Shown one piece after another: positions 2 to 27,226 of a stretch of 32,000 bases of DNA. The notes beneath the pieces are model-generated. The model ran no database searches. It was given only the letters and a program-made list of their open reading frames with translations, and was not told the origin of the DNA. The stretch comes from Carboxydichorda subterranea (GTDB taxonomy: Bacteria > Bacillota > Limnochordia > Limnochordales > Geochordaceae): assembly GCF_035593305.1 (NCBI RefSeq), contig NZ_CP141615.1, forward strand, positions 2,045,722 through 2,077,721, in the 5' to 3' direction. Within the stretch, counting starts at the first letter, position 1. Each line of letters opens with the position of its first letter. The translations under genes were made by a program, and so were the position numbers.

Positions 2-1543
2 GGGGTTGGTACCGTGGATCAGGCACTCCTGGGCGTCCTGCGCGTGCGCCATCACTTCGTGCGGCTCTGGGGGCTGGCCAATCGTACCGTTGTCCTCGAC
101 GAGGTACACGCCTACGATGCATATACCTCGGGGCTCGTCGAGACGTTGCTCCGGTGGCTGAAGACTCTAGGCTCTTCCGCTATCGTGATGAGTGCCACGC
201 TACCAAGATCCCGGCGCAACGCGATCCTCAAGGCGTATGCGGTCGAACCTCCTCACGAGGACGTCCCATATCCTCGAATCACCATCGCTCAGGGTACCGA
301 GGCACGCTCCCTGCAGGTACTGGGGCTTCCGTCAAGGGCTCTGGCGGTTGGGTCTGCTCCGCGAGACCTGCGGGAGCTGGCCCCCCGCCTGCTGGATGAG
401 GTTCGAGACGGAGGATGTCTGGCTTGCATCGTCAACACCGTGGATCGGGCCCAGCGTCTTTATCAGGCCTTGGGCCCGGGAGAGGCCATCGAGGACCAGG
501 GTATCCGGCTGGGCAAACAGGTCGCCGGGATCCCTGTCTACCTCCTGCATGCCCGTTACCCTGCCGCAGAGCGCCAAAAGCGCGAAGAGTTCCTCATTCG
601 GTGCTTCGGAAAGGAGGGCTATGCGACAGGGACGAGGCCCCACCGGGCCGTTCTCGTCGCCACGCAAGTGGTCGAGCAGAGCCTCGACCTGGACTTCGAC
701 GCGATGGTGACCGACCTTGCTCCCATGGATCTAGTGCTGCAGCGTGCGGGGAGGCTTCACCGGTTCGACCTCGCGGCCCTGTCGAAGTACCTTGGCGGGG
801 CGATGGGCTGGTCTCGACCTGCCGCTCACGCCAGCCCACGTCTGTGGGTGGCCGGGCTGGCCGAAGCGCCTCCTGACCTGGAGTCCGAACACTGGGACAA
901 GGTCTACGCTCCGTATGTCTTGCTGATGAGCTGGTGGGCCCTTCGCAGAGCGCAGATAGTGCGCATCCCCGAAGACCTGGAGGCTCTCGTGGAGCAGGTC
1001 TATGACGCCCCCATTCCTGGGAACCTTCCACCCGACATGGCCGCCTGGTTCGAGGAGGCTCGCTCTCTGTGCGAGCGGCAACAAAGCGACCAACGGGCCT
1101 GGGCTCACCACTCGGCTATCAGCAACCCCAGCGAACTCCTGGCGGACGTACCTACGGACATCCTGGCTCTGTCTGACCTGGATGACGACGAGGAAACCCC
1201 GGTCAGCCAGACGCCGCTTACCAGGTACGGGGAGCCCTCGGTGATGGTGATACCCCTCCACAGGGTGGGCAACCGCCTTGCTCTCGATGCTGCCGGCGTG
1301 AGCCCGGCACAAACGGATGAGGTACCGGAGAACGAGCAAGCTCTGAGGCTTTTCTTGCGGTCGGTCAGGCTCGGCCGGCCGGAAGTCTATCGGGCACTCG
1401 TGAAGACTCAACCACCTGCCGGCTGGGCGAGACATCCTCTGCTGCGTCGCATGCGGGTACTCGAGCTCCTGGATGGCAGGGCGAGGATCGGCCGCACGGT
1501 CGTACGGCTCGATCCGGAGCTCGGCGTTGTCTACGAACCATGA
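2..1543 (+). CDS. cas3: Cas3 helicase, type I-E, C-terminal part (5' end lies outside the window)
   Basis: The open frame runs in from the window edge to TGA 1541-1543. It carries DEAH-box motif II (VLDEVHAYD) and motif III (MSATLP), arranged as in E. coli Cas3/YgcB. It sits directly upstream of cse1, as in canonical I-E loci. The HD nuclease domain and helicase motif I are upstream of the window. Confidence 0.9.
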   Translation, partial: GVGTVDQALLGVLRVRHHFVRLWGLANRTVVLDEVHAYDAYTSGLVETLLRWLKTLGSSAIVMSATLPRSRRNAILKAYAVEPPHEDVPYPRITIAQGTEARSLQVLGLPSRALAVGSAPRDLRELAPRLLDEVRDGGCLACIVNTVDRAQRLYQALGPGEAIEDQGIRLGKQVAGIPVYLLHARYPAAERQKREEFLIRCFGKEGYATGTRPHRAVLVATQVVEQSLDLDFDAMVTDLAPMDLVLQRAGRLHRFDLAALSKYLGGAMGWSRPAAHASPRLWVAGLAEAPPDLESEHWDKVYAPYVLLMSWWALRRAQIVRIPEDLEALVEQVYDAPIPGNLPPDMAAWFEEARSLCERQQSDQRAWAHHSAISNPSELLADVPTDILALSDLDDDEETPVSQTPLTRYGEPSVMVIPLHRVGNRLALDAAGVSPAQTDEVPENEQALRLFLRSVRLGRPEVYRALVKTQPPAGWARHPLLRRMRVLELLDGRARIGRTVVRLDPELGVVYEP

Positions 1544-1628
1544 GGTCCCCTCGTGAAGGGGGTGGCCCGTATTTGTGGGCGGCCCGCTGCCGAGGTCGCC
1601 TGATTCCCCACTCCGTGGGGGCGGTCTA
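1542..1628 (+). CRISPR. Degenerate single-spacer mini-CRISPR (repeat 28 nt, spacer 31 nt, repeat 28 nt) with type I-E repeat architecture
   Basis: R1 (1542-1569) is GAGGTCCCCTCGTGAAGGGGGTGGCCCG. R2 (1601-1628) is TGATTCCCCACTCCGTGGGGGCGGTCTA. Both have 5 nt, then a CCCC...GGGG hairpin, then an 8-nt tail. The stems differ by compensatory changes (CCCCT/AGGGG versus CCCCAC/GTGGGG). They resemble I-E repeats recalled from memory: E. coli GAGTTCCCCGCGCCAGCGGGGATAAACCG and T. thermophilus GTAGTCCCCACGCGTGTGGGGATGGACCG. The spacer (1570-1600) is TATTTGTGGGCGGCCCGCTGCCGAGGTCGCC. The unit has the same orientation as the cas genes. Confidence 0.5.
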
Positions 1629-1650
1629 CATAAATACTTCGTTCTCTGGC

Positions 1651-1679
1651 TTGACCGCTCCCAGGCCTGCCTGTAGAAT
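1651..1679 (+). promoter_or_regulatory. Candidate sigma-70/SigA promoter of the Cascade operon
   Basis: TTGACC (1651-1656), a 17-nt spacer, then TAGAAT (1674-1679). Each hexamer matches the consensus at 5 of 6 positions. It lies in the only AT-rich patch of this region (1629-1740), about 75 nt upstream of the cse1 start. Confidence 0.55.
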
Positions 1680-1754
1680 GAGACCGTATTCTTCTTCTCC
1701 CAATGAGTGGTAAGCTCAGCAAAGCCTCTTTGCATAAGTGGGGGAGGCAAGTCG

Positions 1755-3245
1755 GTGCCTCACTTCAACCTGCTGACAGAGCCTTGGATCCCGGTCAGGG
1801 ACCTCCACGAACAACTCCTGCACGTAGGCCTTCGTGACGCTCTCCTGCACGCTCATCGCCTGCGCCGGATCGAAGACCCGTCTCCCCTGGCCGAGGCTGC
1901 ATTTTACCGCCTGCTGTTCGCAGTCGGGCATCGAGCTCTGAAGGGGCCCCGCAGCCTCGAGGAATCCGTTGAGCTCTTCTATCAGGGCCACCTTCCGGAG
2001 GCGCCGTTCGAAGATTACTTCGAAGCCTTTGCCGACCGCTTCGACCTCTTCCACCCGGAGTTCCCGTTCTTCCAGGTAGCGGACCTTCCAACCGACCAAC
2101 CTCTTCCGTGGACGAAGCTGCTTCCCGAGCTGTCATCCGGAAACAACCCCACCCTCTTCGACCACACGCTCGACAGCGCACCTCCGCCGGCCGCCCCGGC
2201 CGACGCAGCCCGGGCTTTAGTGATTCACCAGGCCTTCACGCCAGGCGGGCTCATCAAGAGGATGGGCGTGACCTCGGGCAAGGCGGCGCCGCTCGCAACT
2301 TCGGCCGTCTTCCTCCCGTTCGGGCAAACCCTCTTCGAGACGCTCCTCCTGGGCATGCCCCCATACGACCCCTTCGGTGACGTTCCCATCTGGGAGGGTC
2401 CACCTTACCGCGCCCGTGATGTGGAGGGCCACCGGACAGAAGCAAGCGTGCAGGGTCGCACGAGAGTCTACACGTGGCTCTCAAGGTCCGTACGGTTGCT
2501 GCCGGAGTCCGATGCTGTGGTACGCTATGTCGCCTACGGCCCCGGGGTGCTACCGGTACAAGACAAGCCCTACTGGGATCCCATGTGCGCCTACTCCAAG
2601 GACGACGCAGGCCAGGAAAGGCCTGTGCGCTTGAGTCGGGATCGAGCCTTCTGGCGAGATTTCGAGTCCCTCCTTCCGGGGGACACCCACAGAGTGCCCA
2701 ACGTACTCGAGCAGGCACGCGGCCTTCTGCTCGAGACGGACCGTCTTGCACTGCTGGTGCCTGTGTCGGTACTGGGCCAGGTAACGGACCAAGCTAAGGT
2801 GCTTTCGACACGGCGGGAGACTTACCCGTTTCCCTTGCAGGCCCTCGATGCACACGCCGCAGCGGCCATTCGGAAGGCGGTCAGCGTGGCCAACGAAAGC
2901 GGTAGCCAATTGCGGGCCGCGGGCTATGTGCTGGCCCGGGCCCTTCTCTCTCCCGCGGGTCGTGAGCCTCCGGCGGAGGAAGTGAGCCGTTTGCTCCACA
3001 GTCTCCCCCTCATGTCGTCGTATTGGTCCTCCCTGGAAACGGCGTTTTCGGCCTACCTCGACGACGTGGCCCACAAAGGGGTGGATGAAGCGTACGATGC
3101 GTGGATCGACCGCATTTCGAAGACCATGTGGCTTGCCTGGGAGCAGACCGTGCGGACGGTCGGCACGCATTCGAGGCACCTCAGGGCGATCGAGGCTGGA
3201 GAGCGTCGGTGCGTCGGAGCCTTTGCCGCATTGAAAGGGAGGTGA
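1755..3245 (+). CDS. cse1: Cse1/CasA (Cas8e), Cascade large subunit
   Basis: The ORF spans 1707-3245. The preferred start is GTG 1755, preceded by GGGGAGG (1741-1747) at 7-nt spacing. The N-terminus FNLLTEPWIPVR matches the hallmark CasA N-terminus (E. coli MNLLIDNWIPVR). The size (about 500 aa) and the position after cas3 also fit. Confidence 0.9.
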   Translation: MPHFNLLTEPWIPVRDLHEQLLHVGLRDALLHAHRLRRIEDPSPLAEAAFYRLLFAVGHRALKGPRSLEESVELFYQGHLPEAPFEDYFEAFADRFDLFHPEFPFFQVADLPTDQPLPWTKLLPELSSGNNPTLFDHTLDSAPPPAAPADAARALVIHQAFTPGGLIKRMGVTSGKAAPLATSAVFLPFGQTLFETLLLGMPPYDPFGDVPIWEGPPYRARDVEGHRTEASVQGRTRVYTWLSRSVRLLPESDAVVRYVAYGPGVLPVQDKPYWDPMCAYSKDDAGQERPVRLSRDRAFWRDFESLLPGDTHRVPNVLEQARGLLLETDRLALLVPVSVLGQVTDQAKVLSTRRETYPFPLQALDAHAAAAIRKAVSVANESGSQLRAAGYVLARALLSPAGREPPAEEVSRLLHSLPLMSSYWSSLETAFSAYLDDVAHKGVDEAYDAWIDRISKTMWLAWEQTVRTVGTHSRHLRAIEAGERRCVGAFAALKGR

Positions 3246-3249
3246 TCAG

Positions 3250-3765
3250 GTGGTCGCCACCAAAGCGGAAGAGTTCGTCCGTTTCCTTGAAGGACTGGCC
3301 AGTAACAGGGGCCCTCTTGCAGCTTTAAGGCGCAGCTTGGCCTTCCATCCCGGGTCGTTCGTGCCCTCCTATCCCTATGTGGAGCCGTTCGTGCGCGACT
3401 ACGAAGGCTGGCAGAGGGAAGCGTATTACCTCGTGGCAGGTCTTTTCGCGCTGCATCCCTTCAGCGGCTCGAAGACCCTGCCGGAGGCCATGGCAGAGTT
3501 ACGCATCACGCGCAAGAGCGCGAGCATCGAGGCTCGTTTCGTTGCCCTGCTGGACTCCGATCGCGACCAGCTTCCCGACCGGCTCCGCCACGCCGTGATC
3601 CTGGTTACCCGCTCGCAGAACATGGCCCTGGACTGGGTACGTTTATTGACAGACGTGGTGGAGTGGTTTCGACCCGACCGGAAGATTCAGAGGGAGTGGG
3701 CCAGGGCCTTCTACCGGGCCATGGGCACGCAGCCAACCCCAGCGGAGGAGGCAGTGAAGGTATGA
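3250..3765 (+). CDS. cse2: Cse2/CasB (Cas11), Cascade small subunit
   Basis: A 171-aa ORF lies between cse1 and cas7. GTG 3250 has AAAGGGAGG ending 7 nt upstream. The call rests mainly on size, helical character and conserved position in I-E operons. Confidence 0.8.
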   Translation: MVATKAEEFVRFLEGLASNRGPLAALRRSLAFHPGSFVPSYPYVEPFVRDYEGWQREAYYLVAGLFALHPFSGSKTLPEAMAELRITRKSASIEARFVALLDSDRDQLPDRLRHAVILVTRSQNMALDWVRLLTDVVEWFRPDRKIQREWARAFYRAMGTQPTPAEEAVKV

Positions 3766-4946
3766 ACCTGGTCGAGATTCACATCATTCAAAACGTAGCC
3801 CCATCCAACCTCAACCGCGACGATACGGGCAGTCCGAAAGACGCGTTCTTTGGCGGAGTGCGCCGTGCCCGGCTCAGCAGCCAGTCGCAGAAGCGTGCCG
3901 TGCGCGACTACTTCAAAGCAACCCTTTCCCACGGAACGCTACAGCCAGACGACCTCGCATTGCGTACCAAGCGCCTGGTGGACGAGCTCACGGACCGCCT
4001 CGAAGTCCAAGGCCATTCCCGAGACGAGGCCCGGCGAGTCGCAAAGGCGGCTCTCGGCGGAATGGGACTTGCGGTCGACGACAGGGAGCTGACCCAGTAC
4101 CTCCTTTTCATGGGCCGGCGAGAGATATCCCGGCTCGCCGATATCATCCACGGTCATTGGCAGGTTCTCACCGAAGTCGCTGCGAGCTCTGAGGCCGGCG
4201 ATGGCCAGGCCAAGGCCAAGAAGAAGGCGGCCAAGGCCGCCGTCCCCTCCGACCTCCACAAGGCATTGGAGACAATCCTCGACGGCGGCAAGGCCGTCGA
4301 TCTGGCGCTGTTCGGGCGCATGCTGGCAGACGAGCCCAAGTGGAGCATAGACGCGGCTGCCCAGGTGGCCCACGCCCTCTCTACCCATCAGGTCGACCGC
4401 GAGTTCGACTTCTACACGGCAGTGGACGACCTCAATCCCAAGGAGGAGACCGGCGCCGGCATGATGGGGGATGTCGAGTTCTATTCCGCCTGCCTTTATC
4501 GTTACGCCAACGTGGACCTGGGCCAGCTGGTGCAGAGCCTCCAGGGCGACAGGGAACTTGCGGCCAAGGGCGTTGAGGCCTTCCTGCGAGGGTTCACGCT
4601 CACTTTGCCCTCCGGCAAGCAAAACAGTTTCGCCGCCCATAACTTACCGGGGTTCGTGGCTCTTGTGACGTCCGAAGCGGCTGCGCCGCGCAACCTCGCC
4701 GGTGCCTTCGAGAAACCAGTGCGGGCCCGGGATCGCCGGAGCCTCTCGGGTTTGTCGGTGGAAGCTCTCCTCTCGACATGGGAGACCCTCGACCGGGCCT
4801 ATGGACGTGCCCGGCGCCAGTGGGTCGCCTTGCTCAACCTGACGGATGCAACGGTGAGCTACCACGGGGAGCACGTGAAACCCAGCTTCGACGAAGCCCT
4901 CACAGCAGCGATGGACGGAGTGAGGACGCTGCTGGAGGTGAAATAG
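3762..4946 (+). CDS. cas7: Cas7e/CasC (Cse4), Cascade backbone subunit
   Basis: ATG 3762 overlaps the cse2 stop (ATGA). The N-terminus is MNLVEIHIIQNVAPSNLNRDDTGSPKDAFFGGVRRARLSSQSQKRAVR. This matches the Cas7e signature (SNLNRDD..G.PK...FGG..R.R.SSQ..KR). Confidence 0.92.
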   Translation: MNLVEIHIIQNVAPSNLNRDDTGSPKDAFFGGVRRARLSSQSQKRAVRDYFKATLSHGTLQPDDLALRTKRLVDELTDRLEVQGHSRDEARRVAKAALGGMGLAVDDRELTQYLLFMGRREISRLADIIHGHWQVLTEVAASSEAGDGQAKAKKKAAKAAVPSDLHKALETILDGGKAVDLALFGRMLADEPKWSIDAAAQVAHALSTHQVDREFDFYTAVDDLNPKEETGAGMMGDVEFYSACLYRYANVDLGQLVQSLQGDRELAAKGVEAFLRGFTLTLPSGKQNSFAAHNLPGFVALVTSEAAAPRNLAGAFEKPVRARDRRSLSGLSVEALLSTWETLDRAYGRARRQWVALLNLTDATVSYHGEHVKPSFDEALTAAMDGVRTLLEVK

Positions 4947-5609
4947 GTGCCCACGTTACTCCTGCGACTCCAGGGGCCCATGCAATCCTGGGGAACACGC
5001 AGCCGCTTCGATGAACGTGACACTGCCCTGGAGCCCTCCAAGAGCGGGGTGCTCGGGTTGGTATCCGCTGCCCTCGGGCGGGGGCGCGATGAGGACATCT
5101 CTGATCTGGCAGCCCTACGAATGGGTGTCCGCGTAGACCGCGAGGGTGCGCTACGCTACGACTACCAGACGGCCCAGGAGGTCCTGCGAGCCGACGGGGC
5201 CGGTCTCCAGCCTACCGTGCAGAGCCGACGGTACTACCTTTCCGATGCCGCCTTCCTGGTGGGACTCGAAGGCCCGGACCGGCCCTTGTTGGAAGCCGTC
5301 TACCAGAGCCTGCGCGCCCCACGCTGGACCCTTTTCCTCGGCAGGAAAGGGTACCTGCCCTCTGCCCCTGTGTGGCTTCCTGACGCGCTCGTGGACGCGC
5401 ACCTGGACGAAGCGCTACGGCGTTACCCGCCGCTGGTCGAGGACCTGCCCGAAGTGATCCGCTTCGTGATCGAGTCAAGCAGCGGCCGGCTCTGCATGGA
5501 CCAGCCACTCGCACCCTTCGCACGCCGTCGGTTTGGGGCCCGGTACGTCAGCAGTTTCACTCATCGACGCGAAGAGGTGGGACCGTGTACCTCTCCAAGC
5601 TGTGCTTGA
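4947..5609 (+). CDS. cas5: Cas5e/CasD
   Basis: GTG 4947 directly follows the cas7 TAG, with GGAGGTG 6 nt upstream. The N-terminus LLLRLQGPMQSWGTRSRFDERDT...PSKSGVLGLVSAALG is the Cas5e signature. Confidence 0.92.
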   Translation: MPTLLLRLQGPMQSWGTRSRFDERDTALEPSKSGVLGLVSAALGRGRDEDISDLAALRMGVRVDREGALRYDYQTAQEVLRADGAGLQPTVQSRRYYLSDAAFLVGLEGPDRPLLEAVYQSLRAPRWTLFLGRKGYLPSAPVWLPDALVDAHLDEALRRYPPLVEDLPEVIRFVIESSSGRLCMDQPLAPFARRRFGARYVSSFTHRREEVGPCTSPSCA

Positions 5610-6235
5610 ATCCGCGCCATCCCCTGGCGCGGCGCGATATCTCCAACCCGTACGAGATGCACTCCACTCTCTCCTGGGTGTTCGAGGAGTGCGAGGTCAG
5701 GCGGTTCCTCTGGCGCCTGGAGCGCGGGCGGGATCCTACGAGGCCGACCCTCTTGCTCCAAAGTATCGCCCTACCGCCCTGGGACCGGCTCCAGGCGAGA
5801 GACGGCTACTCTGGCTACCTGCGCGAGGAACCTCAGACCAAGAGGTTCGTTCTGCCCGAGCGCGTACAGGCGGGACAGGTGTTCCGGTTCCGCCTCCAGG
5901 CCAACGCGACCGTTACTCGCGGCGGGAAACGGTACGGGTTGAGAAGCGAACGAGACCAGATTGCCTGGCTCGAACGCCAGGGTGAGCATCATGGGTTCAG
6001 GCTGCTCTATTATGAGGCAGGAGCAGGCACCAGGATTCCCAGTTGTCAGGTCACGTCGGCGGAGCGCCGGGCTTTTCGCAAGCGCCGGCAAGACCCACCC
6101 ATCGTTTTGTGGTCGGTGACGTATGACGGTTACCTCCAGGTTACCGACCCGAGAGGTCTCCAACAGGCACTGGTCAACGGCCTCGGACACGGCAAGGCCC
6201 TGGGCCTGGGGTTACTCTCTATCGCCCCCGCCTGA
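5585..6235 (+). CDS. cas6e: Cas6e/CasE (Cse3), crRNA endoribonuclease
   Basis: The start is GTG 5585, which overlaps the cas5 end by 25 nt. The N-terminus YLSKLCLNPRHPLARRDISNPYEMHSTLSWVF and the C-terminal Gly-rich loop GLGHGKALGLGLLSIAP are typical of CasE. Confidence 0.92.
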   Translation: MYLSKLCLNPRHPLARRDISNPYEMHSTLSWVFEECEVRRFLWRLERGRDPTRPTLLLQSIALPPWDRLQARDGYSGYLREEPQTKRFVLPERVQAGQVFRFRLQANATVTRGGKRYGLRSERDQIAWLERQGEHHGFRLLYYEAGAGTRIPSCQVTSAERRAFRKRRQDPPIVLWSVTYDGYLQVTDPRGLQQALVNGLGHGKALGLGLLSIAPA

Positions 6236-6316
6236 GCTGAGCCGTCTGCCGACGGACTCTGTCTGGGAATGCATGGTGGCGGGCGAGCACCCGCCTGACC
6301 TCCGCCACCCAGCGGG

Positions 6317-6362
6317 GCCCGCATTGGTGCGGGCGCCGCCGAGGGCTGTGATAGCCACAGCC
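6317..6362. terminator. Two GC-rich hairpins between the convergent cas6e and fur genes (possible bidirectional terminator)
   Basis: GCCCGCA-ttgg-TGCGGGC (6317-6334) and GGCTGTG-atagc-CACAGCC (6344-6362). Neither has a clear U-tract. Confidence 0.3.
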
Positions 6363-6851
6363 TCACCCCTCTTGCCGGCCTGGAGCCCCCTCCTGAAGTG
6401 GCCCTCGTCGGTCCTCCCGATCGCGCCCCGCCGCCCGGCACTCGGGGCAGTAGCCGGTGAAGTGGAGCGAATGGTCCACCACCCGGAAACCCGTCTCCGC
6501 CTCGATCCGCCGCTCGAGCGGCTCGAGCAGGTCCTCCTTGAACTCGAAGATCCGGCCGCAGCCGAGGCAGATCAGGTGGTGGTGGTAGTGACCCTTTTCG
6601 AGCCCGAACTCGAACCGGTCCTCCTCTTCGCCCACGTTGAGCCGGTTGGCCACGCCCGCCTGCTCCAGCAGCGGCAGCGTCCGGTAGACGGTGGCGAGCC
6701 CCAGGTCCGGATGCGCCCGCCGGGCGTTCTCGTACAGCTCGAGCGCGCTGAAGTGGCGGTCCGGATGCGCCGCCAGCACCTCCACCACCGCCAGCCGTTG
6801 CGGCGTCACCCGCACCCCCGATGCCTCGAGCCTGCGCCGGGCAGCCTGCAC
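6363..6851 (-). CDS. Fur-family metalloregulator (Fur/Zur/PerR type not resolved)
   Basis: The N-terminus is a winged helix (VTPQRLAVVEVLAAHPDRHFSALELY...ATVYRTL). The metal-site motifs HYHHHLICLGCG and GYCPEC are present. Length is 162 aa. Confidence 0.88.
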   Translation of the reverse strand: MQAARRRLEASGVRVTPQRLAVVEVLAAHPDRHFSALELYENARRAHPDLGLATVYRTLPLLEQAGVANRLNVGEEEDRFEFGLEKGHYHHHLICLGCGRIFEFKEDLLEPLERRIEAETGFRVVDHSLHFTGYCPECRAAGRDREDRRGPLQEGAPGRQEG

Positions 6852-6945
6852 CCGCCCCTCCGCTCCGGAGCCCCCGGGCGTCTGCCCGTGGCGCCGTCGC
6901 GGCAGCCGCGCCGCCCCGGTGCCTCCCGGCTGCGCTCGAGCAGGG

Positions 6946-8475
6946 TCACGAGGAGGAAGTCCCAGGCTCTCCCAGCTCCCGCCTCATCAACTCGCCGACC
7001 GTCTTGGGGTTGGCCTTGCCTTTCGAGAGCTTCATGACCTGGCCCACCAGGAACCCGGCCGCCTGCGCCTTGCCCGCGCGGTAAGAAGCCACGGCGTCAG
7101 GATTGGCCTCGATGGCCTGCCGCACCCAGGCGAGCAGCTGCGCTTCGTCGCCGACCTGCTCCAGCCCCCGGGCCCGCACGATCTCCTCGGGAGCGCGGCC
7201 GCTCTTGAAACTCTCCTCCAGCACCTCTTTCCCGACGTTGGCGGAGATCCGCCCGGCCGAGACCAGGCGCAGCACCTCGACGAGGTGCTCCACCCACTCG
7301 GGGCGCCCGGCGAGCACCCCCGGCTCCTCGCCGGAGGCGCCCAGGATCCGCAGCACCTCGCCCATCACCCAGTTGCTCACGGTCTTGCCGTCTTTCCACC
7401 GCGACGCCGCCTGCTCGAAGAAGCCGGCCAGCGCCGGGTGCTGGCAGATGACCCAGGCGTCGTAGGCGGGCAGCTGCCACTGCTCCATGAGCCGCCGGCG
7501 CCGGGCCGCGGGGAGCTCCGGCAGGCTCTGGCGCACCCGCTCCACGTACGCTTCGTCCAGCGCCAGCGGCGGGATGTCCGGCTCGGGGAAGTAGCGGTAG
7601 TCCTGCACCGTCTCTTTGCTGCGCATGGGGATGGTGGTACCGCTCGCCTCGTCCCATCCCCGGGTCTCCTGGACGATCCGGCCCCCGTCCTCCAGGACGG
7701 CCGCTTGCCGGTAAGCTTCGTAGCGCAGCGCCCGCTCGACGGCCCGCAGCGAGTTGATGTTTTTCACCTCGGTCTTGGTGCCGAGGCGAGTCTCGCCGGG
7801 CCGGCGCAGCGAGATGTTGGCGTCGCAGCGGAGCGACCCTTCTTCCATCTTGACGTCGGAGACGCCGAGGTACTGCATGACGCTGCGCAGCTCCTCGAGG
7901 AAAAGGCGCGCCTCCTCGGGCGTGCGCAGGTCGGGTTGGGTCACGATCTCGATGAGGGGCACGCCGCTCCGGTTGTAGTCGACCAGCGAGTAGCGGCTCC
8001 CGGCGATGGTGGCCGTCGAGTGCACCAGCTTGCCGGTCTCCTCCTCCAGGTGCACCCGGATGATGCCGACGCGCCGCGTCCTCCCCCCGACCTCCACCTC
8101 GAGGTAGCCGTCCCGGCACAGCGGCAGGTCGTACTGCGAGATCTGGTACGCCTTGGGCAGGTCGGGATAGAAGTAGTTTTTGCGGTCGAACTTGGCGTAC
8201 GGCGCGATCCGGCAGTGGAGCGCCAGCCCCGCCCGCACCGCGTACTCCACCGCCTTTTCGTTGAGCACCGGCAGGCTCCCGGGAAGCCCCAGGCAGACGG
8301 GGCAAACCTGCGTGTTGGGCGGCGCTCCGAAGCGCGTGCTGCACCCGCAGTAGATCTTGGACTCGGTCGCGAGCTCCACGTGGATCTCGAGGCCGATGAC
8401 CGCCTCCCACCCCGGCGGCACGCTCGGGGCGGCCTGCGCCTGCGCCGTCGCCTGGGCCGGCATCTGGGCCTTCAT
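6946..8475 (-). CDS. gatB: Asp/Glu-tRNA(Asn/Gln) amidotransferase subunit B
   Basis: The motif [47 protein letters not shown] is present. The start ATG 8475 overlaps the gatA stop (ATGA). The longer ORF reaching 8625 is an upstream extension that overlaps gatA. Confidence 0.95.
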
Positions 8476-15623: not shown

Positions 15624-17423
15624 ATGGGCAACGCGGTGCGGATCACGGGGCGTAGAGGCCTAGGAGATACCCTGGTCGACCAGGGGCTTGTCACCCCAGC
15701 GCAGCTGCAGGAGGCCGTGGCCGAGCAGCGGCGGACGGGCAAGAGCATCGTGCGGGCGCTGCTCGATCTCGAGCTCGTGAGCCCCGGCCAGATGGCCGAC
15801 GCGCTGTCCGCGTACCTCGGCATCCCGCGTGTTCGATGGGACCAGGTGGAACTCCGCCCCGAGCTCGCCCGCGTGCTGCCCGAGCGGTTCTTGAAAGAAG
15901 GGGTGCTGCCCGTGCGGGTGGAGGGCAGCACCCTCTTCCTCGCCATGGTCGACCCCATGGACGTCATGCTCCTCGACGACGTGCAGGCGGCCACCGGCAT
16001 GCACGTCGTACCGCTGGTGGCCACGGAGCCGGAGATCGAGGTGGCGCGGGGGCAGGTCTTCAGCCTGGCCCTCTCCACCGAGGAAGTCGTCGAGCAAATC
16101 GAGCCCGAGGAAGAGCCTCTCAACGAGCAGGAGCTCATCGACCCCAACTCCCCGGCCGTCCGCATGGTCAACCTCATCCTGGCCGACGCCGTCCAGCGGC
16201 GGGCCAGCGACGTCCATCTGGAACCGCAAAGAGATCGCCTGCGCGTGCGCTTTCGCATCGACGGCCTGCTGCGAGACGTCAGCACGGTTCCCCGCCAGCT
16301 CATGCCGAGCGTCGTCTCCCGGGTGAAGGTCATGGCCGGGCTCGACATCGCCGAGCACCGGCGCCCGCAGGACGGCCAGATCCAGATGCGGATCGGCGAG
16401 GCGCAGGTCGACATGCGAGTCTCCGTCATGCCGACCATCCACGGCGAGAAGGCCGTGGTGCGGTTGCTCAACCGGAGCGCCGGGCTCATCACGCTCGACC
16501 AGTTAGGTTTCCTGCCCGAGGCGCGCCTCCAGGTCGACGAGATGCTGCGCCAGCGCCAGGGCCTCATCCTGCTCACGGGGCCCACCGGGAGCGGCAAGTC
16601 GACGACCCTTTACGCCTTTTTGCAGGCGCTCAACACGCCCGAGCGCAACATCATCACGGTGGAAGATCCGGTGGAGTACCACGTGGACGGCATCACGCAG
16701 GTGCAGATCAATCCCCGGGCCGGCATCACCTTCGCCAACACGCTGCGCAGCGTGCTCCGCCAGGACCCCGACGTGCTCATGGTCGGGGAGATCCGGGATC
16801 AGGAGACCGCGCAGATCGCGGTGCGGGCAGCCCTCACCGGGCACCTGGTGCTTTCGACGCTGCACACCAACTCGGCGCCCGGCAGCGTGGTGCGGCTCAT
16901 GGACATGGGGGTCGAGCCGTACTTGCTGAGCGCCACCCTGGTGGGGGTCGTCGCGCAGCGCCTGGTGCGGGCCGTCTGCCGCGACTGCCGGACGACGGGC
17001 GTGCCGGAGCTCACGCCGGCCGAACGGAGCTTCCTCGGCCCCGCCTATCACGGCGAGCCCCTCGCCTGGGGGCGCGGCTGCCAGGTGTGCGAAGGCACGG
17101 GCTTTCGCGGCCGGGTCCTGATCGAGGAGGTGCTCCTGGTGGACCGGGCCATCCGCGATCACATCGCCGGGCAGCCCTCCGAGGATACCTTGCGGCAGCT
17201 CGCCATGAAGGCAGGCATGAAGACGCTCAAGGAAAGCGGCATCGCCAAGGCGCTGATGGGAATCACCACCGTGGGCGAGGTCTTCCGGGCGCTGTACAGC
17301 CTCGACGAGTGGAACGGCAAGGAACCATGGCAAACCGGCGGCACGGGCGAGGCCGCGGCCGCGCTCGCCACCGCAGGGACTGAACAACCTTCGAGTCTCG
17401 AGGCCGAAGAGGTGCGCCCATGA
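15624..17423 (+). CDS. pilB: Type IV pilus assembly (extension) ATPase, GspE/PilB family
   Basis: It has an N-terminal T2SSE_N/MshEN-like domain, Walker A (GPTGSGKSTTLYA), Asp and His boxes, and a tetra-Cys motif (CRDC...CQVCEGTG). Confidence 0.93.
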   Translation: MGNAVRITGRRGLGDTLVDQGLVTPAQLQEAVAEQRRTGKSIVRALLDLELVSPGQMADALSAYLGIPRVRWDQVELRPELARVLPERFLKEGVLPVRVEGSTLFLAMVDPMDVMLLDDVQAATGMHVVPLVATEPEIEVARGQVFSLALSTEEVVEQIEPEEEPLNEQELIDPNSPAVRMVNLILADAVQRRASDVHLEPQRDRLRVRFRIDGLLRDVSTVPRQLMPSVVSRVKVMAGLDIAEHRRPQDGQIQMRIGEAQVDMRVSVMPTIHGEKAVVRLLNRSAGLITLDQLGFLPEARLQVDEMLRQRQGLILLTGPTGSGKSTTLYAFLQALNTPERNIITVEDPVEYHVDGITQVQINPRAGITFANTLRSVLRQDPDVLMVGEIRDQETAQIAVRAALTGHLVLSTLHTNSAPGSVVRLMDMGVEPYLLSATLVGVVAQRLVRAVCRDCRTTGVPELTPAERSFLGPAYHGEPLAWGRGCQVCEGTGFRGRVLIEEVLLVDRAIRDHIAGQPSEDTLRQLAMKAGMKTLKESGIAKALMGITTVGEVFRALYSLDEWNGKEPWQTGGTGEAAAALATAGTEQPSSLEAEEVRP

Positions 17424-23932: not shown

Positions 23933-25773
23933 GCGGCACCGTGCAGGCTGGCAAGTGGTCCCGCCTCGCCGCGGCCGGTCTCGCCCTGCTCGGGCTCGCC
24001 GTGGCTGCGGCGACCGGGGCCCTGGCGGCAGCGCCGGTACCGGGCGCGGGGGCCTCCGGCGAGGGACAGGAGGCGCAGGTGTCGCTCGCCTTTCAAGACG
24101 CGGACGTACGGGAGATCTTCGCGTCGCTGGCCGACGCGGCCGGATGGAACTTCGTCGCGCTGCCCGACCTCACGGGCAAGGCGACGCTCGCGATCAAGGG
24201 CCTGAGCGTGGAGCAGGCCGTCGACATGGTGGCCCGGGCGACGGGGTTCGCGTACGTGCTGTCGGCCAACACGCTGGTGGTGGGCGCCCGATCCTCGCTG
24301 GAAGCCCGCTTCGACCCGGAGGGCGTGCGGCCCGATCGGCCGGCGGCGCCGAAGCCTGCTCCACCGGCGGAAGAGACGGCTACCGAGTTCGTACGGCTCA
24401 ACTACGTGCGGGCGGCGGCCATGAAGCAGCTCGCCACCATGGTTCTGCCGGAGGGGGCCATCCGCGTCGACGAGGCCAGCAACCTGCTGGTGGTGCAAGG
24501 CACGGCGCAGCAGCTGGATGCGCTGCGCCGGCTCGTCGCCGAGTACGACCGGCCGCCGGCCCAGGTGCTCATCGAGGCCCGGGTCGAGGAGGTGCTGGGC
24601 AACGCCACGGAGGACCTGGGTCTGGCATGGCAGCTGCCGAGGGTCGGGGTGTCGCTGGCCCCGCGGTTCGGCTCGGTCAGGCTCGACCCGGAGGAATTGC
24701 TGGCCACGTTGCATGCCCTCGAGGAGCAGGGACGGAGCCGTCTGCTCGCCCGGCCCCAGGTGACGACCATCAACGGGCAGGCGGCCACCATCTTCATCGG
24801 CGACGAGATCCCCATCATCCTCAAGGGGCAGGGCGACGCCCCGGACACGCTGCAGACCATCACAGCGGGCGTGCGGCTGGAGATCACGCCGTTCGTGGGG
24901 AGCGACGGCACCATCACGGCCGACGTGAAGCCGGAGGTGAGCACCATCGCCGGCTACCGCGTGGCCGGCGACCAACAGCTGCCCCAGATCCGGACGCGCA
25001 AGGCTCAGACCCGGATCCGGGTCAAGGACGGCGAGCCCATCGTCATCGGCGGGCTCATCAACCAGCAGGAGAGCGAGACGGTGTCGGGCCTGCCGGTGCT
25101 CAAGGAGTTTCCGGTGCTGGGCGGGTTCTTCTCGACCACCCGCACCGACCAGCAGCAGAGCGAGATGCTCATCTTCCTCATTCCCAGGGTCCTGCCGGGC
25201 GAAGGGGCGACAGCGAAAGCCGAGCAGGGCCAGGCAGGCTCCAACGGGGCGGCGGCTCCGGGAAGTCGGGAGCAAGGGTCGACGGCCGGCGAACGCACCA
25301 GGTGGCAGATGCCGTCTTTCGAGCGCCCGCAGCAGTGGGCCATCCGGCTCGATGCCGCCGGGGCCCAGGAGTCGGCGTGGGAGATCGGGGTCGAACGGCC
25401 CGTGGGCACGGCACAAACGGCGACCACCAGCCTTGTCCTGACTCCGGTCTCGGCGGGTAGCGAAAGAGCAAGTGCCTGGGGCCTGGGTCTCAGCTGGCGC
25501 TGGTATTACCCGTCGTCTCTGGGCGGCGCGTGGTTGGGGCTGGGGGGCGAGGTGATCTGGCCCAACGCCGGGGTGGGCTCGGTGGCAGCCGGCACAGGCC
25601 TGACCGTCGTGAGCATCGAGGCGGGAGCGCGTACGCCCATCGAGCGGGTACCGTTGTTCCTGGAGCCGTTCGTGCGGTGGGTGCCGGCGGTATGGGGCGA
25701 TGCGGCGCTCGTGGAGCTGCCCCGCAGGACGCCGGGCCTGTGGTTGGGTCTCGACGTGGGGTGGGCGTTTTGA
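23929..25773 (+). CDS. pilQ: Type IV pilus secretin with a C-terminal extension of about 190 aa
   Basis: ATG 23929 overlaps the upstream stop (ATGA). A signal peptide and an N0 module (VSLAFQDADVREIFASLADAAGWNFV...) are present. The canonical secretin core is LLARPQVTTINGQAATIFIGDEIPI...IVIGGLINQQESETVSGLPVLKEFPVLGGFFS...SEMLIFLIPRVL. Confidence 0.9.
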   Translation: MSGTVQAGKWSRLAAAGLALLGLAVAAATGALAAAPVPGAGASGEGQEAQVSLAFQDADVREIFASLADAAGWNFVALPDLTGKATLAIKGLSVEQAVDMVARATGFAYVLSANTLVVGARSSLEARFDPEGVRPDRPAAPKPAPPAEETATEFVRLNYVRAAAMKQLATMVLPEGAIRVDEASNLLVVQGTAQQLDALRRLVAEYDRPPAQVLIEARVEEVLGNATEDLGLAWQLPRVGVSLAPRFGSVRLDPEELLATLHALEEQGRSRLLARPQVTTINGQAATIFIGDEIPIILKGQGDAPDTLQTITAGVRLEITPFVGSDGTITADVKPEVSTIAGYRVAGDQQLPQIRTRKAQTRIRVKDGEPIVIGGLINQQESETVSGLPVLKEFPVLGGFFSTTRTDQQQSEMLIFLIPRVLPGEGATAKAEQGQAGSNGAAAPGSREQGSTAGERTRWQMPSFERPQQWAIRLDAAGAQESAWEIGVERPVGTAQTATTSLVLTPVSAGSERASAWGLGLSWRWYYPSSLGGAWLGLGGEVIWPNAGVGSVAAGTGLTVVSIEAGARTPIERVPLFLEPFVRWVPAVWGDAALVELPRRTPGLWLGLDVGWAF

Positions 25774-25864
25774 ACGCGGCCCGGCCAGCGGGACGGGCGC
25801 GGCATCGTCCTGCTGGATGCGGGCAGGTCACGGGCCGAATCCACCCGGAAATGGGGTGAGCCAC

Positions 25865-27226
25865 ATGTGCAACCCCCGATGCAAACAGAGGCCCGGATGG
25901 GCGCCAGGCTTCTCGTCCTGGCGGCCGCGCCGTGCCAGCGGGCGTGATCCCCGCCGCGGCGAAGAGGGCTACTTCCTCGTCATGGCCCTCATCCTCACCA
26001 CGGCGGTGATGGTGATGGCGAGCGGGCTGGCTCTGGTGAGCACAGCGTCTCTGCGGGCCGCCCGGCACGCCCTCGACCGCGCTCGAGCCCTTTACGCCGC
26101 CGAGTCGGGGATGAACGTCGCCATCCACGCCGTGGAGACAGATGCCATCGGCAACGATCCCTGGACCGCGGAGGTCCCCGGCTGGTACAGGGTGACGGTC
26201 AACGGCAAGGACGGCGAGCGGTGCCCGGACATCGCGCGAACGGTCTATGCAGACGGGTGGAGTGGCAGCGTTCACCGAAGGTTCAGCGCGAGGCTGAGGC
26301 TTACGACCACCCCTTTCCCCCGGGAAAAGGTGGTCACTGCTGGGTGTGAGGCTGACTACTTCGATCCGCTCCTGACATTCAAGCCAATAGACCAAATCTC
26401 GCCCCCGCACGGGTGGACACGATGGCCAGGCGGGTCGGTCACGGTCCCCGCTGGAAGCCATGTCGACTACAGGGTCGACGGGCCCCTGTATCTAGGGCCG
26501 GGGACCACGGTCACTGTGTCCCCGGACGCGGCAATGAACCTGTTCATCAACGGCGACCTCTTCGTCGACGACGGCGTAACTCTGAACGTCTCGGCAGGCG
26601 CGAAAGTCAACTTCTACACCTACGGTAGCATTCATCTGGGCGCCAACACTCTTGGCTCCACCGTGCTAGGCAGCAAGCTCAACGTCAATACGAGCGAGTA
26701 CGTGGTGTTTCATGTTCAGCAGGCGCTGACCACAAGTCCAGGCTCGGCGATCGTCGTGACCCGCCCGGAGGGTGATGAGACCGGTGGGGTCGTTTTCGTG
26801 ATGTCGAACGAAGGATCCGGCCCCGCGACCATCTACCCGTACACGAGCATCATTCAGATGATTCTTGATACGCTGACGAACGCGTTGAAAGAGGCCTTCC
26901 CCGAGTTTTCCATAGACCTGTGTAAACTCTTCCGGCCACTATGCTCGCCCCCATCCCAGATGGCCGTTTACGCTCCCACTCGTTGGATTACCGGTGTCTC
27001 CCTCCCTTGGTCGGATCCTAAAGTGAAAGGGTCCTTGGTGGGCCAGGCCATAACTGACCAGTGCAATTCCTTCACCGTCAAGGTACTCATCTTCACGTGG
27101 ACATTGGGCTGTGGCGACAGCTATGGTATGGACGTTTATGCTGATCCCACGTTTAAAAAGTTTCCGTTTACGAACCCATCCCGGATGATATCCGGATCCT
27201 GGAAAGAGGTCCAGGTGGTCCCGTGA
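25865..27226 (+). CDS. PilX_N-like pilus-associated protein with a large beta-helix-like, Cys-containing C-terminal domain
   Basis: The sequence EEGYFLVMALILTTAVMVMASGLALVSTASLRAARHALDRARALYAAESG fits the PilX N-terminal domain pattern (hydrophobic helix, then A.AE.G). The rest has repetitive strand-turn motifs (VTVSPDAAMNLFINGDLFVDDGVTLNVSAGAKVNFYTYGSIHLG). The start is uncertain (25865 or 25817). Confidence 0.55.
   Translation: MCNPRCKQRPGWAPGFSSWRPRRASGRDPRRGEEGYFLVMALILTTAVMVMASGLALVSTASLRAARHALDRARALYAAESGMNVAIHAVETDAIGNDPWTAEVPGWYRVTVNGKDGERCPDIARTVYADGWSGSVHRRFSARLRLTTTPFPREKVVTAGCEADYFDPLLTFKPIDQISPPHGWTRWPGGSVTVPAGSHVDYRVDGPLYLGPGTTVTVSPDAAMNLFINGDLFVDDGVTLNVSAGAKVNFYTYGSIHLGANTLGSTVLGSKLNVNTSEYVVFHVQQALTTSPGSAIVVTRPEGDETGGVVFVMSNEGSGPATIYPYTSIIQMILDTLTNALKEAFPEFSIDLCKLFRPLCSPPSQMAVYAPTRWITGVSLPWSDPKVKGSLVGQAITDQCNSFTVKVLIFTWTLGCGDSYGMDVYADPTFKKFPFTNPSRMISGSWKEVQVVP

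Follow-up and report, generated by a model that had tools for sequence, protein, structure and literature searches.

At the left edge of a 32-kb stretch of DNA from Carboxydichorda subterranea (Bacillota, Limnochordia; contig NZ_CP141615.1), referred to here as the window, lies a co-directional type I-E set of genes associated with CRISPR (short palindromic repeats, clustered and regularly interspaced), namely cas3-cse1-cse2-cas7-cas5-cas6e, spanning 14-6235 on the plus strand. All coordinates are window positions and the analysis is at the sequence level. The 3′ 509 codons of cas3 (14-1543, with NCBIfam Cas3 matches) are present, the 5′ part lying beyond the window edge; on L168, a contig of a near-identical strain, full-length Cas3 reads as 914 amino acids. 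The cas3 stop codon TGA occupies 1541-1543, and cse1 (casA; 1755-3245) starts with GTG and is preceded by the ribosome-binding site (RBS) GGGGGAGG at 1740-1747; its product shows 100% identity with the Cse1 protein that NCBI lists for Carboxydochorda subterranea. Gene calls, including those on L168, place cse2 at 3250-3765, cas7 at about 3762-4946, cas5 at 4947-5609 and cas6e at 5585-6235, all on the plus strand. The subject of this work is a short element at 1542-1628, sited between the cas3 stop (1543) and the cse1 start (1755), which is probably a CreR-type regulatory mini-CRISPR through which Cascade would repress its own synthesis.

The element comprises two 28-nt degenerate repeats, designated psiR1 (R1) and psiR2 (R2), that flank a single spacer-like sequence, psiS. 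psiR1 (1542-1569, plus strand), whose start falls inside the cas3 stop codon, reads GAGGT-CCCCT-cgtga-AGGGG-GTGGCCCG and is made of a lead (1542-1546), a stem (1547-1551/1557-1561) with its loop (1552-1556) and an 8-nt 5′ handle (1562-1569). psiS (1570-1600, plus strand) is 31 nt long (TATTTGTGGGCGGCCCGCTGCCGAGGTCGCC) and opens with the seed TATTTGTG (1570-1577). psiR2 (1601-1628, plus strand) reads TGATT-CCCCAC-tcc-GTGGGG-GCGGTCTA, with a CCCCAC/GTGGGG stem (1606-1611/1615-1620), a TCC loop and a degenerate tail (1621-1628). An earlier note on this DNA had described two 28-nt hairpin units 59 nt apart, start to start, enclosing a 31-nt spacer and beginning in the cas3 stop codon, with the second unit degenerate at its 3′ end; the sequence reads exactly so, and the psiR2 tail is degenerate across orthologs as well. 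Perfect CCCC-initiated hairpins (stem of at least 5, loop of 3-6, perfect pairing) occur three times on the plus strand of the 32 kb, two of them being R1 and R2, and the handle-like motif GGG-NTG[GA][AC]CCG has a single occurrence on both strands of the whole window, at R1. This pattern is more than chance and is not a product of G+C-rich DNA. Outside the stem, R1 and R2 differ at most positions, and the three or more near-identical repeats of a canonical CRISPR array are not found here. At gathering thresholds, Rfam returned no family from the entire window, and with permissive settings the sole match in 1400-1800 was to a snoRNA and is put down to chance. Two other readings of the same nucleotides were considered and rejected: the opposite strand, because the reverse complement carries no handle-like tail, and a plain intrinsic terminator, because no U-tract site was scored in 1300-1900 of the window.

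Downstream of psiR2, as the earlier note had proposed for the Cascade promoter, a putative sigma-70-like promoter of cse1 and the Cascade operon occupies 1651-1679 on the plus strand (-35 TTGACC at 1651-1656, a 17-nt spacer and -10 TAGAAT at 1674-1679; 10/12 consensus matches, where shuffles average 0.0). The psiS seed is identical at positions 1-5 and 7-8 to the minus strand read from 1636 to 1629. This target seed (protospacer positions 1-8, TATTTATG, 1629-1636, minus strand) is directly flanked by AAG (1637-1639, minus strand; CTT on the plus strand), and the combined site is written AAG+TATTTNTG. AAG is the canonical type I-E protospacer-adjacent motif (PAM); what is known of the E. coli I-E system, together with conservation across loci, suggests that it is also the PAM of the window Cascade. 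Besides the spacer itself, 1629-1636 is the sole full seed match on either strand of the 32 kb. The flank of psiS is CCG, a repeat-derived non-PAM, and the target is the only site in the 32 kb that combines PAM and seed. When the intergenic region was shuffled 20000 times with dinucleotides preserved, such a combination appeared 8 times. The PAM lies on the upstream side of the -35 hexamer, at a distance of 11 nt. A search for a second regulatory target, for example at a cas3 promoter, gave none, whether in the window, L168 or the orthologs. As a separate observation, an 11-nt inverted repeat (TGGGGGCGGTC/GACCGCTCCCA, 91% complementary) has one arm in the 3′ half of psiR2 (1616-1626) and the other in the cse1 promoter's -35 region (1653-1663); L087 does not show this repeat.

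Neither Tandem Repeats Finder (TRF) nor a repeat finder detected a CRISPR array in the window, in line with the earlier note, and comparison with the host's repeats relied on L168. This contig was found by exact look-up of the Cse2 protein; over 6.4 kb it shares 99.1% identity with the window, and it reaches 1.4 kb further upstream. At its positions 31-120, just before the cas3 start and approximately 1.3 kb upstream of the left edge of the window, it carries two I-E repeats in plus orientation (GTACTCCCCACGCGTATGGGAGTGGACCG and GTGTTTCCCACGTGTGTGGGGCCGACCG) separated by a 33-nt spacer. Their stem, CCCCAC/GTGGGG, is that of psiR2, and a single nucleotide sets their handle, GTGGACCG, apart from that of psiR1 (7/8 identical). 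The earlier note had asked for a comparison with the genome's own I-E repeats, regarding an unrelated repeat as fatal to its reading; the repeats found are related, and that objection therefore falls away. Only 30 nt of the contig precede the first repeat. The pair is probably the degenerate, promoter-distal end of a real array, as in the related loci L086 and L087, where arrays of 6-18 repeats stand ahead of cas3; it may also be a second mini-array. Between the window and L168, not one substitution occurs in 1542-1639 (98 nt, covering mini-CRISPR, target and PAM), and two, at 1642 and 1644, fall within the 11-nt linker from the PAM to the -35 box.

Loci encoding relatives of Cse1 were drawn from genome contigs, metagenome contigs and exact-protein look-ups. 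The closest ones, from uncultured Bacillota with 53-61% Cse1 identity, share a common layout (cas3, a gap of some 200-280 nt, then cse1 through cas6e) and display the same element directly after the cas3 stop. The element is also found in the Thermus loci L009, L048, L105, L107, L108, L128 and L158; across loci at 45-61% Cse1 identity its architecture, handle, seed and target are kept, and in all of them psiR1 starts inside the cas3 stop codon or within about 25 nt of it. The two repeats have degenerated in complementary ways. psiR1 retains the 3′ part of the repeat, GGGG followed by the 8-nt 5′ handle [G/A]TG[G/A][A/C]CCG (invariant columns G18-G20, T22, G23 and C26-G28 in alignment A2), and psiR2 retains the 5′ part with the hairpin or 3′-handle portion, T-CCCC[A/G]C...G[T/C]GGGG, its tail being degenerate (invariant columns T5-C9, C11 and G17-G19 in alignment A3). 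The psiR2 stem is the stem of canonical repeats in related loci. The psiR1 handle is invariant or nearly so across orthologs and matches the 3′ ends of canonical I-E repeats, which bears out the resemblance to I-E 5′ handles mentioned in the earlier note. Moreover, where a contig also holds a canonical array, it equals the handle of that array, which is GTGGACCG in L081, L086 and L087, GTGAACCG in L082 and ATGGCCCG in L048, the last unlike the ATGGACCG of other Thermus.

The earlier note had also argued from compensatory substitutions between the two stems and had suggested aligning orthologous cas3-cse1 regions. The same two hairpins were found there with compensatory changes: in an alignment manually anchored on, i.e. 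fitted to, the stem and including psiR1, psiR2 and canonical repeats, all 124 of 124 cells pair, three of the six pairs show double changes (for instance A-U, G-C and U-A at pair 5), and the observed covariation is reached by none of 500 shuffles. psiS falls into two length groups, 30-33 nt in the window and in L080, L081 and L085-L087, and 19-20 nt in L082 (8098-8117), L092, L093 and the Thermus loci L009 (9742-9760), L048 (8182-8200), L105, L107, L108, L128 and L158. The short version is about 12 nt shorter than the window class, which corresponds to two Cas7 steps, and in the short-psiS loci a T-rich tail, scored as a terminator, comes after psiR2; a terminator-like combination of psiR2 hairpin and T-rich tail occurs in L009, L082 and L086.

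Several features of the Thermus loci deserve separate mention. In L002, L003, L005 and L007 the cas3-cse1 gap is short and devoid of a mini-CRISPR; these four loci carry a conserved imperfect palindrome, e.g. ATCCGTCAGCGGATGTCGG, about 60 nt upstream of cse1, which is also present just upstream of cse1 in L048 and is possibly the site of a protein regulator. In other Thermus loci the CreR-targeted promoter is separated from cse1 by a small open reading frame (ORF), at 8330-8570 in L048, 3034-3291 in L105 and about 9863-9946 in L009. Those of L048 (MEAALDAMMKF...) and L105 (...WARVNERQRERRLLLQTGSLDEPDMI) are homologous, encode approximately 70-85 amino acids and share W..ER.RER...L.TG.LD, with no match in Pfam; that of L009, at the equivalent place, is shorter (about 27 amino acids). 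The Thermus small ORF may be a cargo gene under CreR control.

The relation between guide and target was analyzed in 17 spacer/target pairs from related loci of uncultured Bacillota and Thermus. In every locus, the best PAM-flanked seed match lies on the minus strand at the sole promoter-like site upstream of cse1; each intergenic region contains one such site, at or beside the target, and orthologs have it at the equivalent place. No second target site was found elsewhere on the ortholog contigs. Guide and target change together, since the spacer 11-mer takes 14 different forms among the 17 pairs and every form has its counterpart in its own target. Fifteen pairs have AAG as their PAM, the two exceptions being L081 with AGG and L085 with AAT; for L085, L088 and L089 the automatic PAM-restricted search chose a spurious site and the real candidate has the PAM AAT, which makes these a weaker case. 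From position 1 to position 16, the numbers of matching pairs are 17, 17, 14, 17, 16, 4, 17, 16, 16, 15, 14, 4, 7, 8, 5 and 2. Positions 1-5 and 7-11 therefore keep their pairing, positions 6 and 12 match no more often than chance, and beyond 12 the pairing is lost. Cascade flips out every sixth base, and the drop at positions 6 and 12 is the pattern expected of guides used in this manner.

Two geometries can be distinguished. In most loci (class A) the plus-strand PAM complement CTT overlaps the -35 box, as in cACTTGACA. Class B comprises the window and L085-L087; here the PAM precedes the -35 box by 10-13 nt, pairing is shorter, at 7-9 nt, and the target is located just 3′ of psiR2, which it abuts in the window, L086 and L087. 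This arrangement is conserved and covarying, as seen from the spacer/target pairs TATTTgTG/TATTTaTG in the window, TATTTgCGA/TATTTaCGA in L087 and TATTTtCGAG/TATTTcCGAG in L086.

Taken together, these data favor the view, to which a probability of roughly 0.72 is assigned, that 1542-1628 is a CreR-type regulatory mini-CRISPR of type I-E that autorepresses Cascade. The mechanism would run as follows. The mini-CRISPR would be transcribed as a 3′ extension of the cas3 mRNA, which is suggested by the position of psiR1 at or near the stop codon together with the lack of any promoter-like site scored upstream of psiR1 in five loci, the window included. Cas6e (Cse3) cuts at the 3′ base of each repeat hairpin, and on this rule the two hairpins would yield a crRNA-like (CRISPR RNA-like) molecule of about 59 nt (8 + 31 + 20; predicted at 1562-1620, plus strand), consisting of the 5′ handle GUGGCCCG, the 31-nt guide and a 3′ hairpin. 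The window Cas6e, compared with PDB entries 1WJ9 and 2Y8W, is intact: it aligns over its full length with Cse3 of T. thermophilus and keeps the NPYEMH motif, whose Tyr and His are presumably the catalytic residues. The processed CreR RNA would then load into Cascade, and the complex would dock in a PAM- and seed-dependent manner at the AAG-flanked minus-strand site 1636-1629, beside the cse1 promoter. As pairing would be restricted to the seed (1-5 and 7-8), a full R-loop could not form and Cas3 would not be licensed to cut. The bound complex would obstruct RNA polymerase, either at the Cascade operon or as it reads into it, resulting in negative feedback on Cascade synthesis that, by analogy with published CreR, might be relieved when crRNAs or anti-CRISPR proteins titrate Cascade. 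For the class B geometry, repression could operate by steric hindrance just upstream of the -35 box or by a roadblock to cas3 read-through, the latter in view of the expected pairing of the crRNA with the non-template strand. Of all the proposed steps, this is the least certain.

A more specific version, put forward tentatively and at low probability, concerns the Limnochordia-type sub-clade formed by the window and L085-L087. There, CreR might be a product of the cas3 3′ untranslated region (UTR) acting at a docking site one helical turn upstream of the -35 box that abuts psiR2 and offers 7-9 paired bases; the circuit could then be more than -35 occlusion, namely a minimal-seed, weak-binding rheostat. 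If so, the dosage of Cas3 and Cascade would be coupled, since cas3 transcription would supply the repressor guide, with a possible roadblock to cas3 read-through into the Cascade operon.

Several points weigh against autorepression by CreR. With 7 paired bases, the window has the shortest match of the 17 pairs (8-14 in the orthologs), below the cut-off of at least 10 bp demanded in the survey of Shmakov et al. (PMC10120712). The cse1 promoter is putative and rests on a consensus match. Its -35 box stands 11 nt downstream of the PAM, with no overlap, which makes promoter occlusion less obvious. In the window, psiR2 has no U-tract terminator after its hairpin and a dedicated promoter of the mini-CRISPR was not found. 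Finally, the canonical repeat of this organism is seen solely as two degenerate terminal repeats on the contig of a near-identical strain.

Because the window has the weakest match, the main alternative is a decaying relic, in which an element descended from a functional CreR mini-array no longer regulates, its match having shrunk to 7 nt and drifted off the -35 box, and its hairpins merely structuring the 3′ end of the cas3 transcript. Clearly degenerate relatives do exist, L084 and L001 having broken stems and poor matches. However, both hairpins of the window are perfect, its handle is 7/8 identical to that of the own-strain array repeat, and seed and PAM are intact. Furthermore, the displaced arrangement is kept in L085-L087 with covarying seed and target, and the 1542-1639 interval is identical in the 99.1% identical strain while the adjacent linker has taken two substitutions. 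A relic is thus considered unlikely, although it is the strongest competitor.

Far less probable is a structure acting only at the RNA level, in which the 5′ end of psiS and the 'target' are the arms of an inverted repeat (1569-1577/1629-1637) that encloses R2 in a cas3 read-through transcript, its role being termination, attenuation or stability, and Cascade would play no part. The inverted repeat is indeed detected and used by the minimum-free-energy fold (z = -2.0), and the position-6 mismatch of the window would be a G-U wobble. Yet the same mismatch is non-wobble in L009, L048 and L128, which argues against a plain RNA stem, as does the chance-level pairing at positions 6 and 12. In most loci the second arm would not be on the same RNA, because it overlaps the -35 box beyond a terminator-like psiR2 and its T-tract. 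The AAG next to the arm is conserved also in loci where it lies clear of the -35 box, and the identity of the handle with canonical repeats is left unexplained.

Less credible still is that the element is CreA, paired in a CreTA-like addiction module with a small toxin or cargo gene that the targeted promoter would drive ahead of cse1. Published CreA elements share the anatomy, and Thermus relatives have the conserved ORF of about 70-85 amino acids between targeted promoter and cse1. Pfam gives no match for that ORF, and the window sub-clade lacks it; in the window, cse1 follows the predicted transcription start by only about 70 nt, and 1686-1754 contains no RBS-preceded ORF and no obvious small gene as judged from the nucleotides, which would not reveal a non-coding toxin RNA. 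The CreA/CreR-class reading of the earlier note is supported by the seed target, the AAG and the covariation, which that note had not described; no toxin candidate is seen in the window. Equally hard to credit is an ordinary minimal array with one immune spacer, or chance hairpins or a plain cas3 terminator, for although 31 nt is a canonical spacer length and GC-rich hairpins are common after stop codons, IMG/VR contains nothing identical to the first 20 nt of psiS, the two repeats differ from each other and have decayed in the complementary manner of CreR, 1300-1900 scored no terminator-like site, and architecture, handle, seed and target are conserved at 45-61% Cse1 identity.

Other contents of the window can be summarized briefly. 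No cas1 or cas2 follows cas6e (6236-7100 and neighboring gene content). Instead, a convergent gene for a Fur-family regulator (6363-6848, minus strand) is followed by gatB/gatA and ligA; in relatives, the position 3′ of cas6e holds an array (L086 and L087) or cas1-cas2 (L084). The G+C content dips to 0.60-0.63, against about 0.70, at 15624-17423 and 25700-27226; in these regions lie type IV pilus-type genes, which encode a PilB/T2SSE ATPase and a protein carrying a PilX N-terminal domain. There are no tRNA genes in the window.

If correct, the autoregulatory reading extends RNA-guided control of Cas synthesis to a deep-branching thermophilic lineage of Bacillota and to Thermus-type I-E systems. 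The 17 guide/target pairs form an unusually clean comparative set, and thus speak, as evolutionary evidence from in vivo, to the pairing that Cascade needs for binding without cutting. The window variant, with its 7-nt seed, displaced target and guide fused to the cas3 3′ end, would mark a lower limit missed by surveys requiring at least 10 bp. For annotators, the locus is probably to be regarded as self-repressed, and the guide may offer a natural minimal template for the design of thermophilic CRISPR interference (CRISPRi).

Degenerate mini-CRISPRs encoding CreR have been demonstrated in types I-B, I-E and V-A (bioRxiv 10.1101/2023.03.10.532045), and the sequence-level hallmarks of the class are all present in the window: location between cas3 and cse1, two repeat-like units flanking one spacer at CRISPR spacing, resemblance to the host repeat (judged from the two terminal degenerate repeats of L168), complementary degeneration of psiR1 and psiR2, a spacer seed-complementary, over a short match, to a site beside the effector-gene promoter, an AAG PAM at that site, and guide and target changing together across related loci. 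The element therefore belongs to an already published class. The earlier note had considered an instance at a cas3/cse1 junction worth documenting; the lineage is new for the class, which is already published for I-E at this very place (bioRxiv 10.1101/2023.03.10.532045; PMC10120712). The species description paper of Carboxydochorda does not mention CRISPR.

Among the closest counterparts is the I-E CreR of Salmonella enterica, for which Cascade-dependent autorepression, relieved by crRNA load or by an anti-CRISPR protein, has been shown experimentally (Liu et al., bioRxiv 10.1101/2023.03.10.532045). Both are degenerate mini-CRISPRs upstream of casA in which psiR1 keeps the 8-nt 5′ handle and psiR2 the 3′ handle, and in both, psiS has partial complementarity to a site with AAG at its flank in the region of the casA promoter. 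In Salmonella, guide and target share 15 consecutive nucleotides, versus 7 (1-5 and 7-8) in the window; in addition, the window element abuts the cas3 stop, is co-oriented with cas3 and shows no promoter of its own, and its predicted target is set off from the -35 box by one helical turn in the upstream direction. In a computational survey of I-E and I-F1 loci, regulatory mini-arrays turned up in about 19% of the bacterial I-E loci; their typical place is a long intergenic region between cas3 and cas8, their targets in the cas8 promoter have AAG at the flank, and a sixth-position mismatch was noted for I-F1 (Shmakov et al., PMC10120712). The window element shares with them the cas3-cas8e niche, the two repeat-like units and the cas8-promoter target with canonical PAM; the main text of that survey mentions neither Limnochordia-like Bacillota nor Thermus. 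CreA of the type I-B CreTA system of Haloarcula hispanica is summarized in both papers as a single-spacer degenerate CRISPR that mediates seed-only repression by Cascade, without cleavage (bioRxiv 10.1101/2023.03.10.532045; PMC10120712). According to the same papers, CreA represses the toxin gene creT in a subtype I-B context, whereas the window has no toxin candidate. The type II-A tracr-L, as cited in the survey, is likewise a natural non-canonical guide, with a match of about 11 bp to the effector's own promoter that leads to Cas9 autorepression (PMC10120712); unlike the window element, it serves a class 2 single-protein effector, and its guide stems from the tracrRNA and not from a Cas6e-processed mini-array. 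What sets the window element apart within the published class is its lineage, its fusion to the 3′ end of cas3 with co-orientation, its 7-nt seed and the one-turn displacement of its target from the -35 box.

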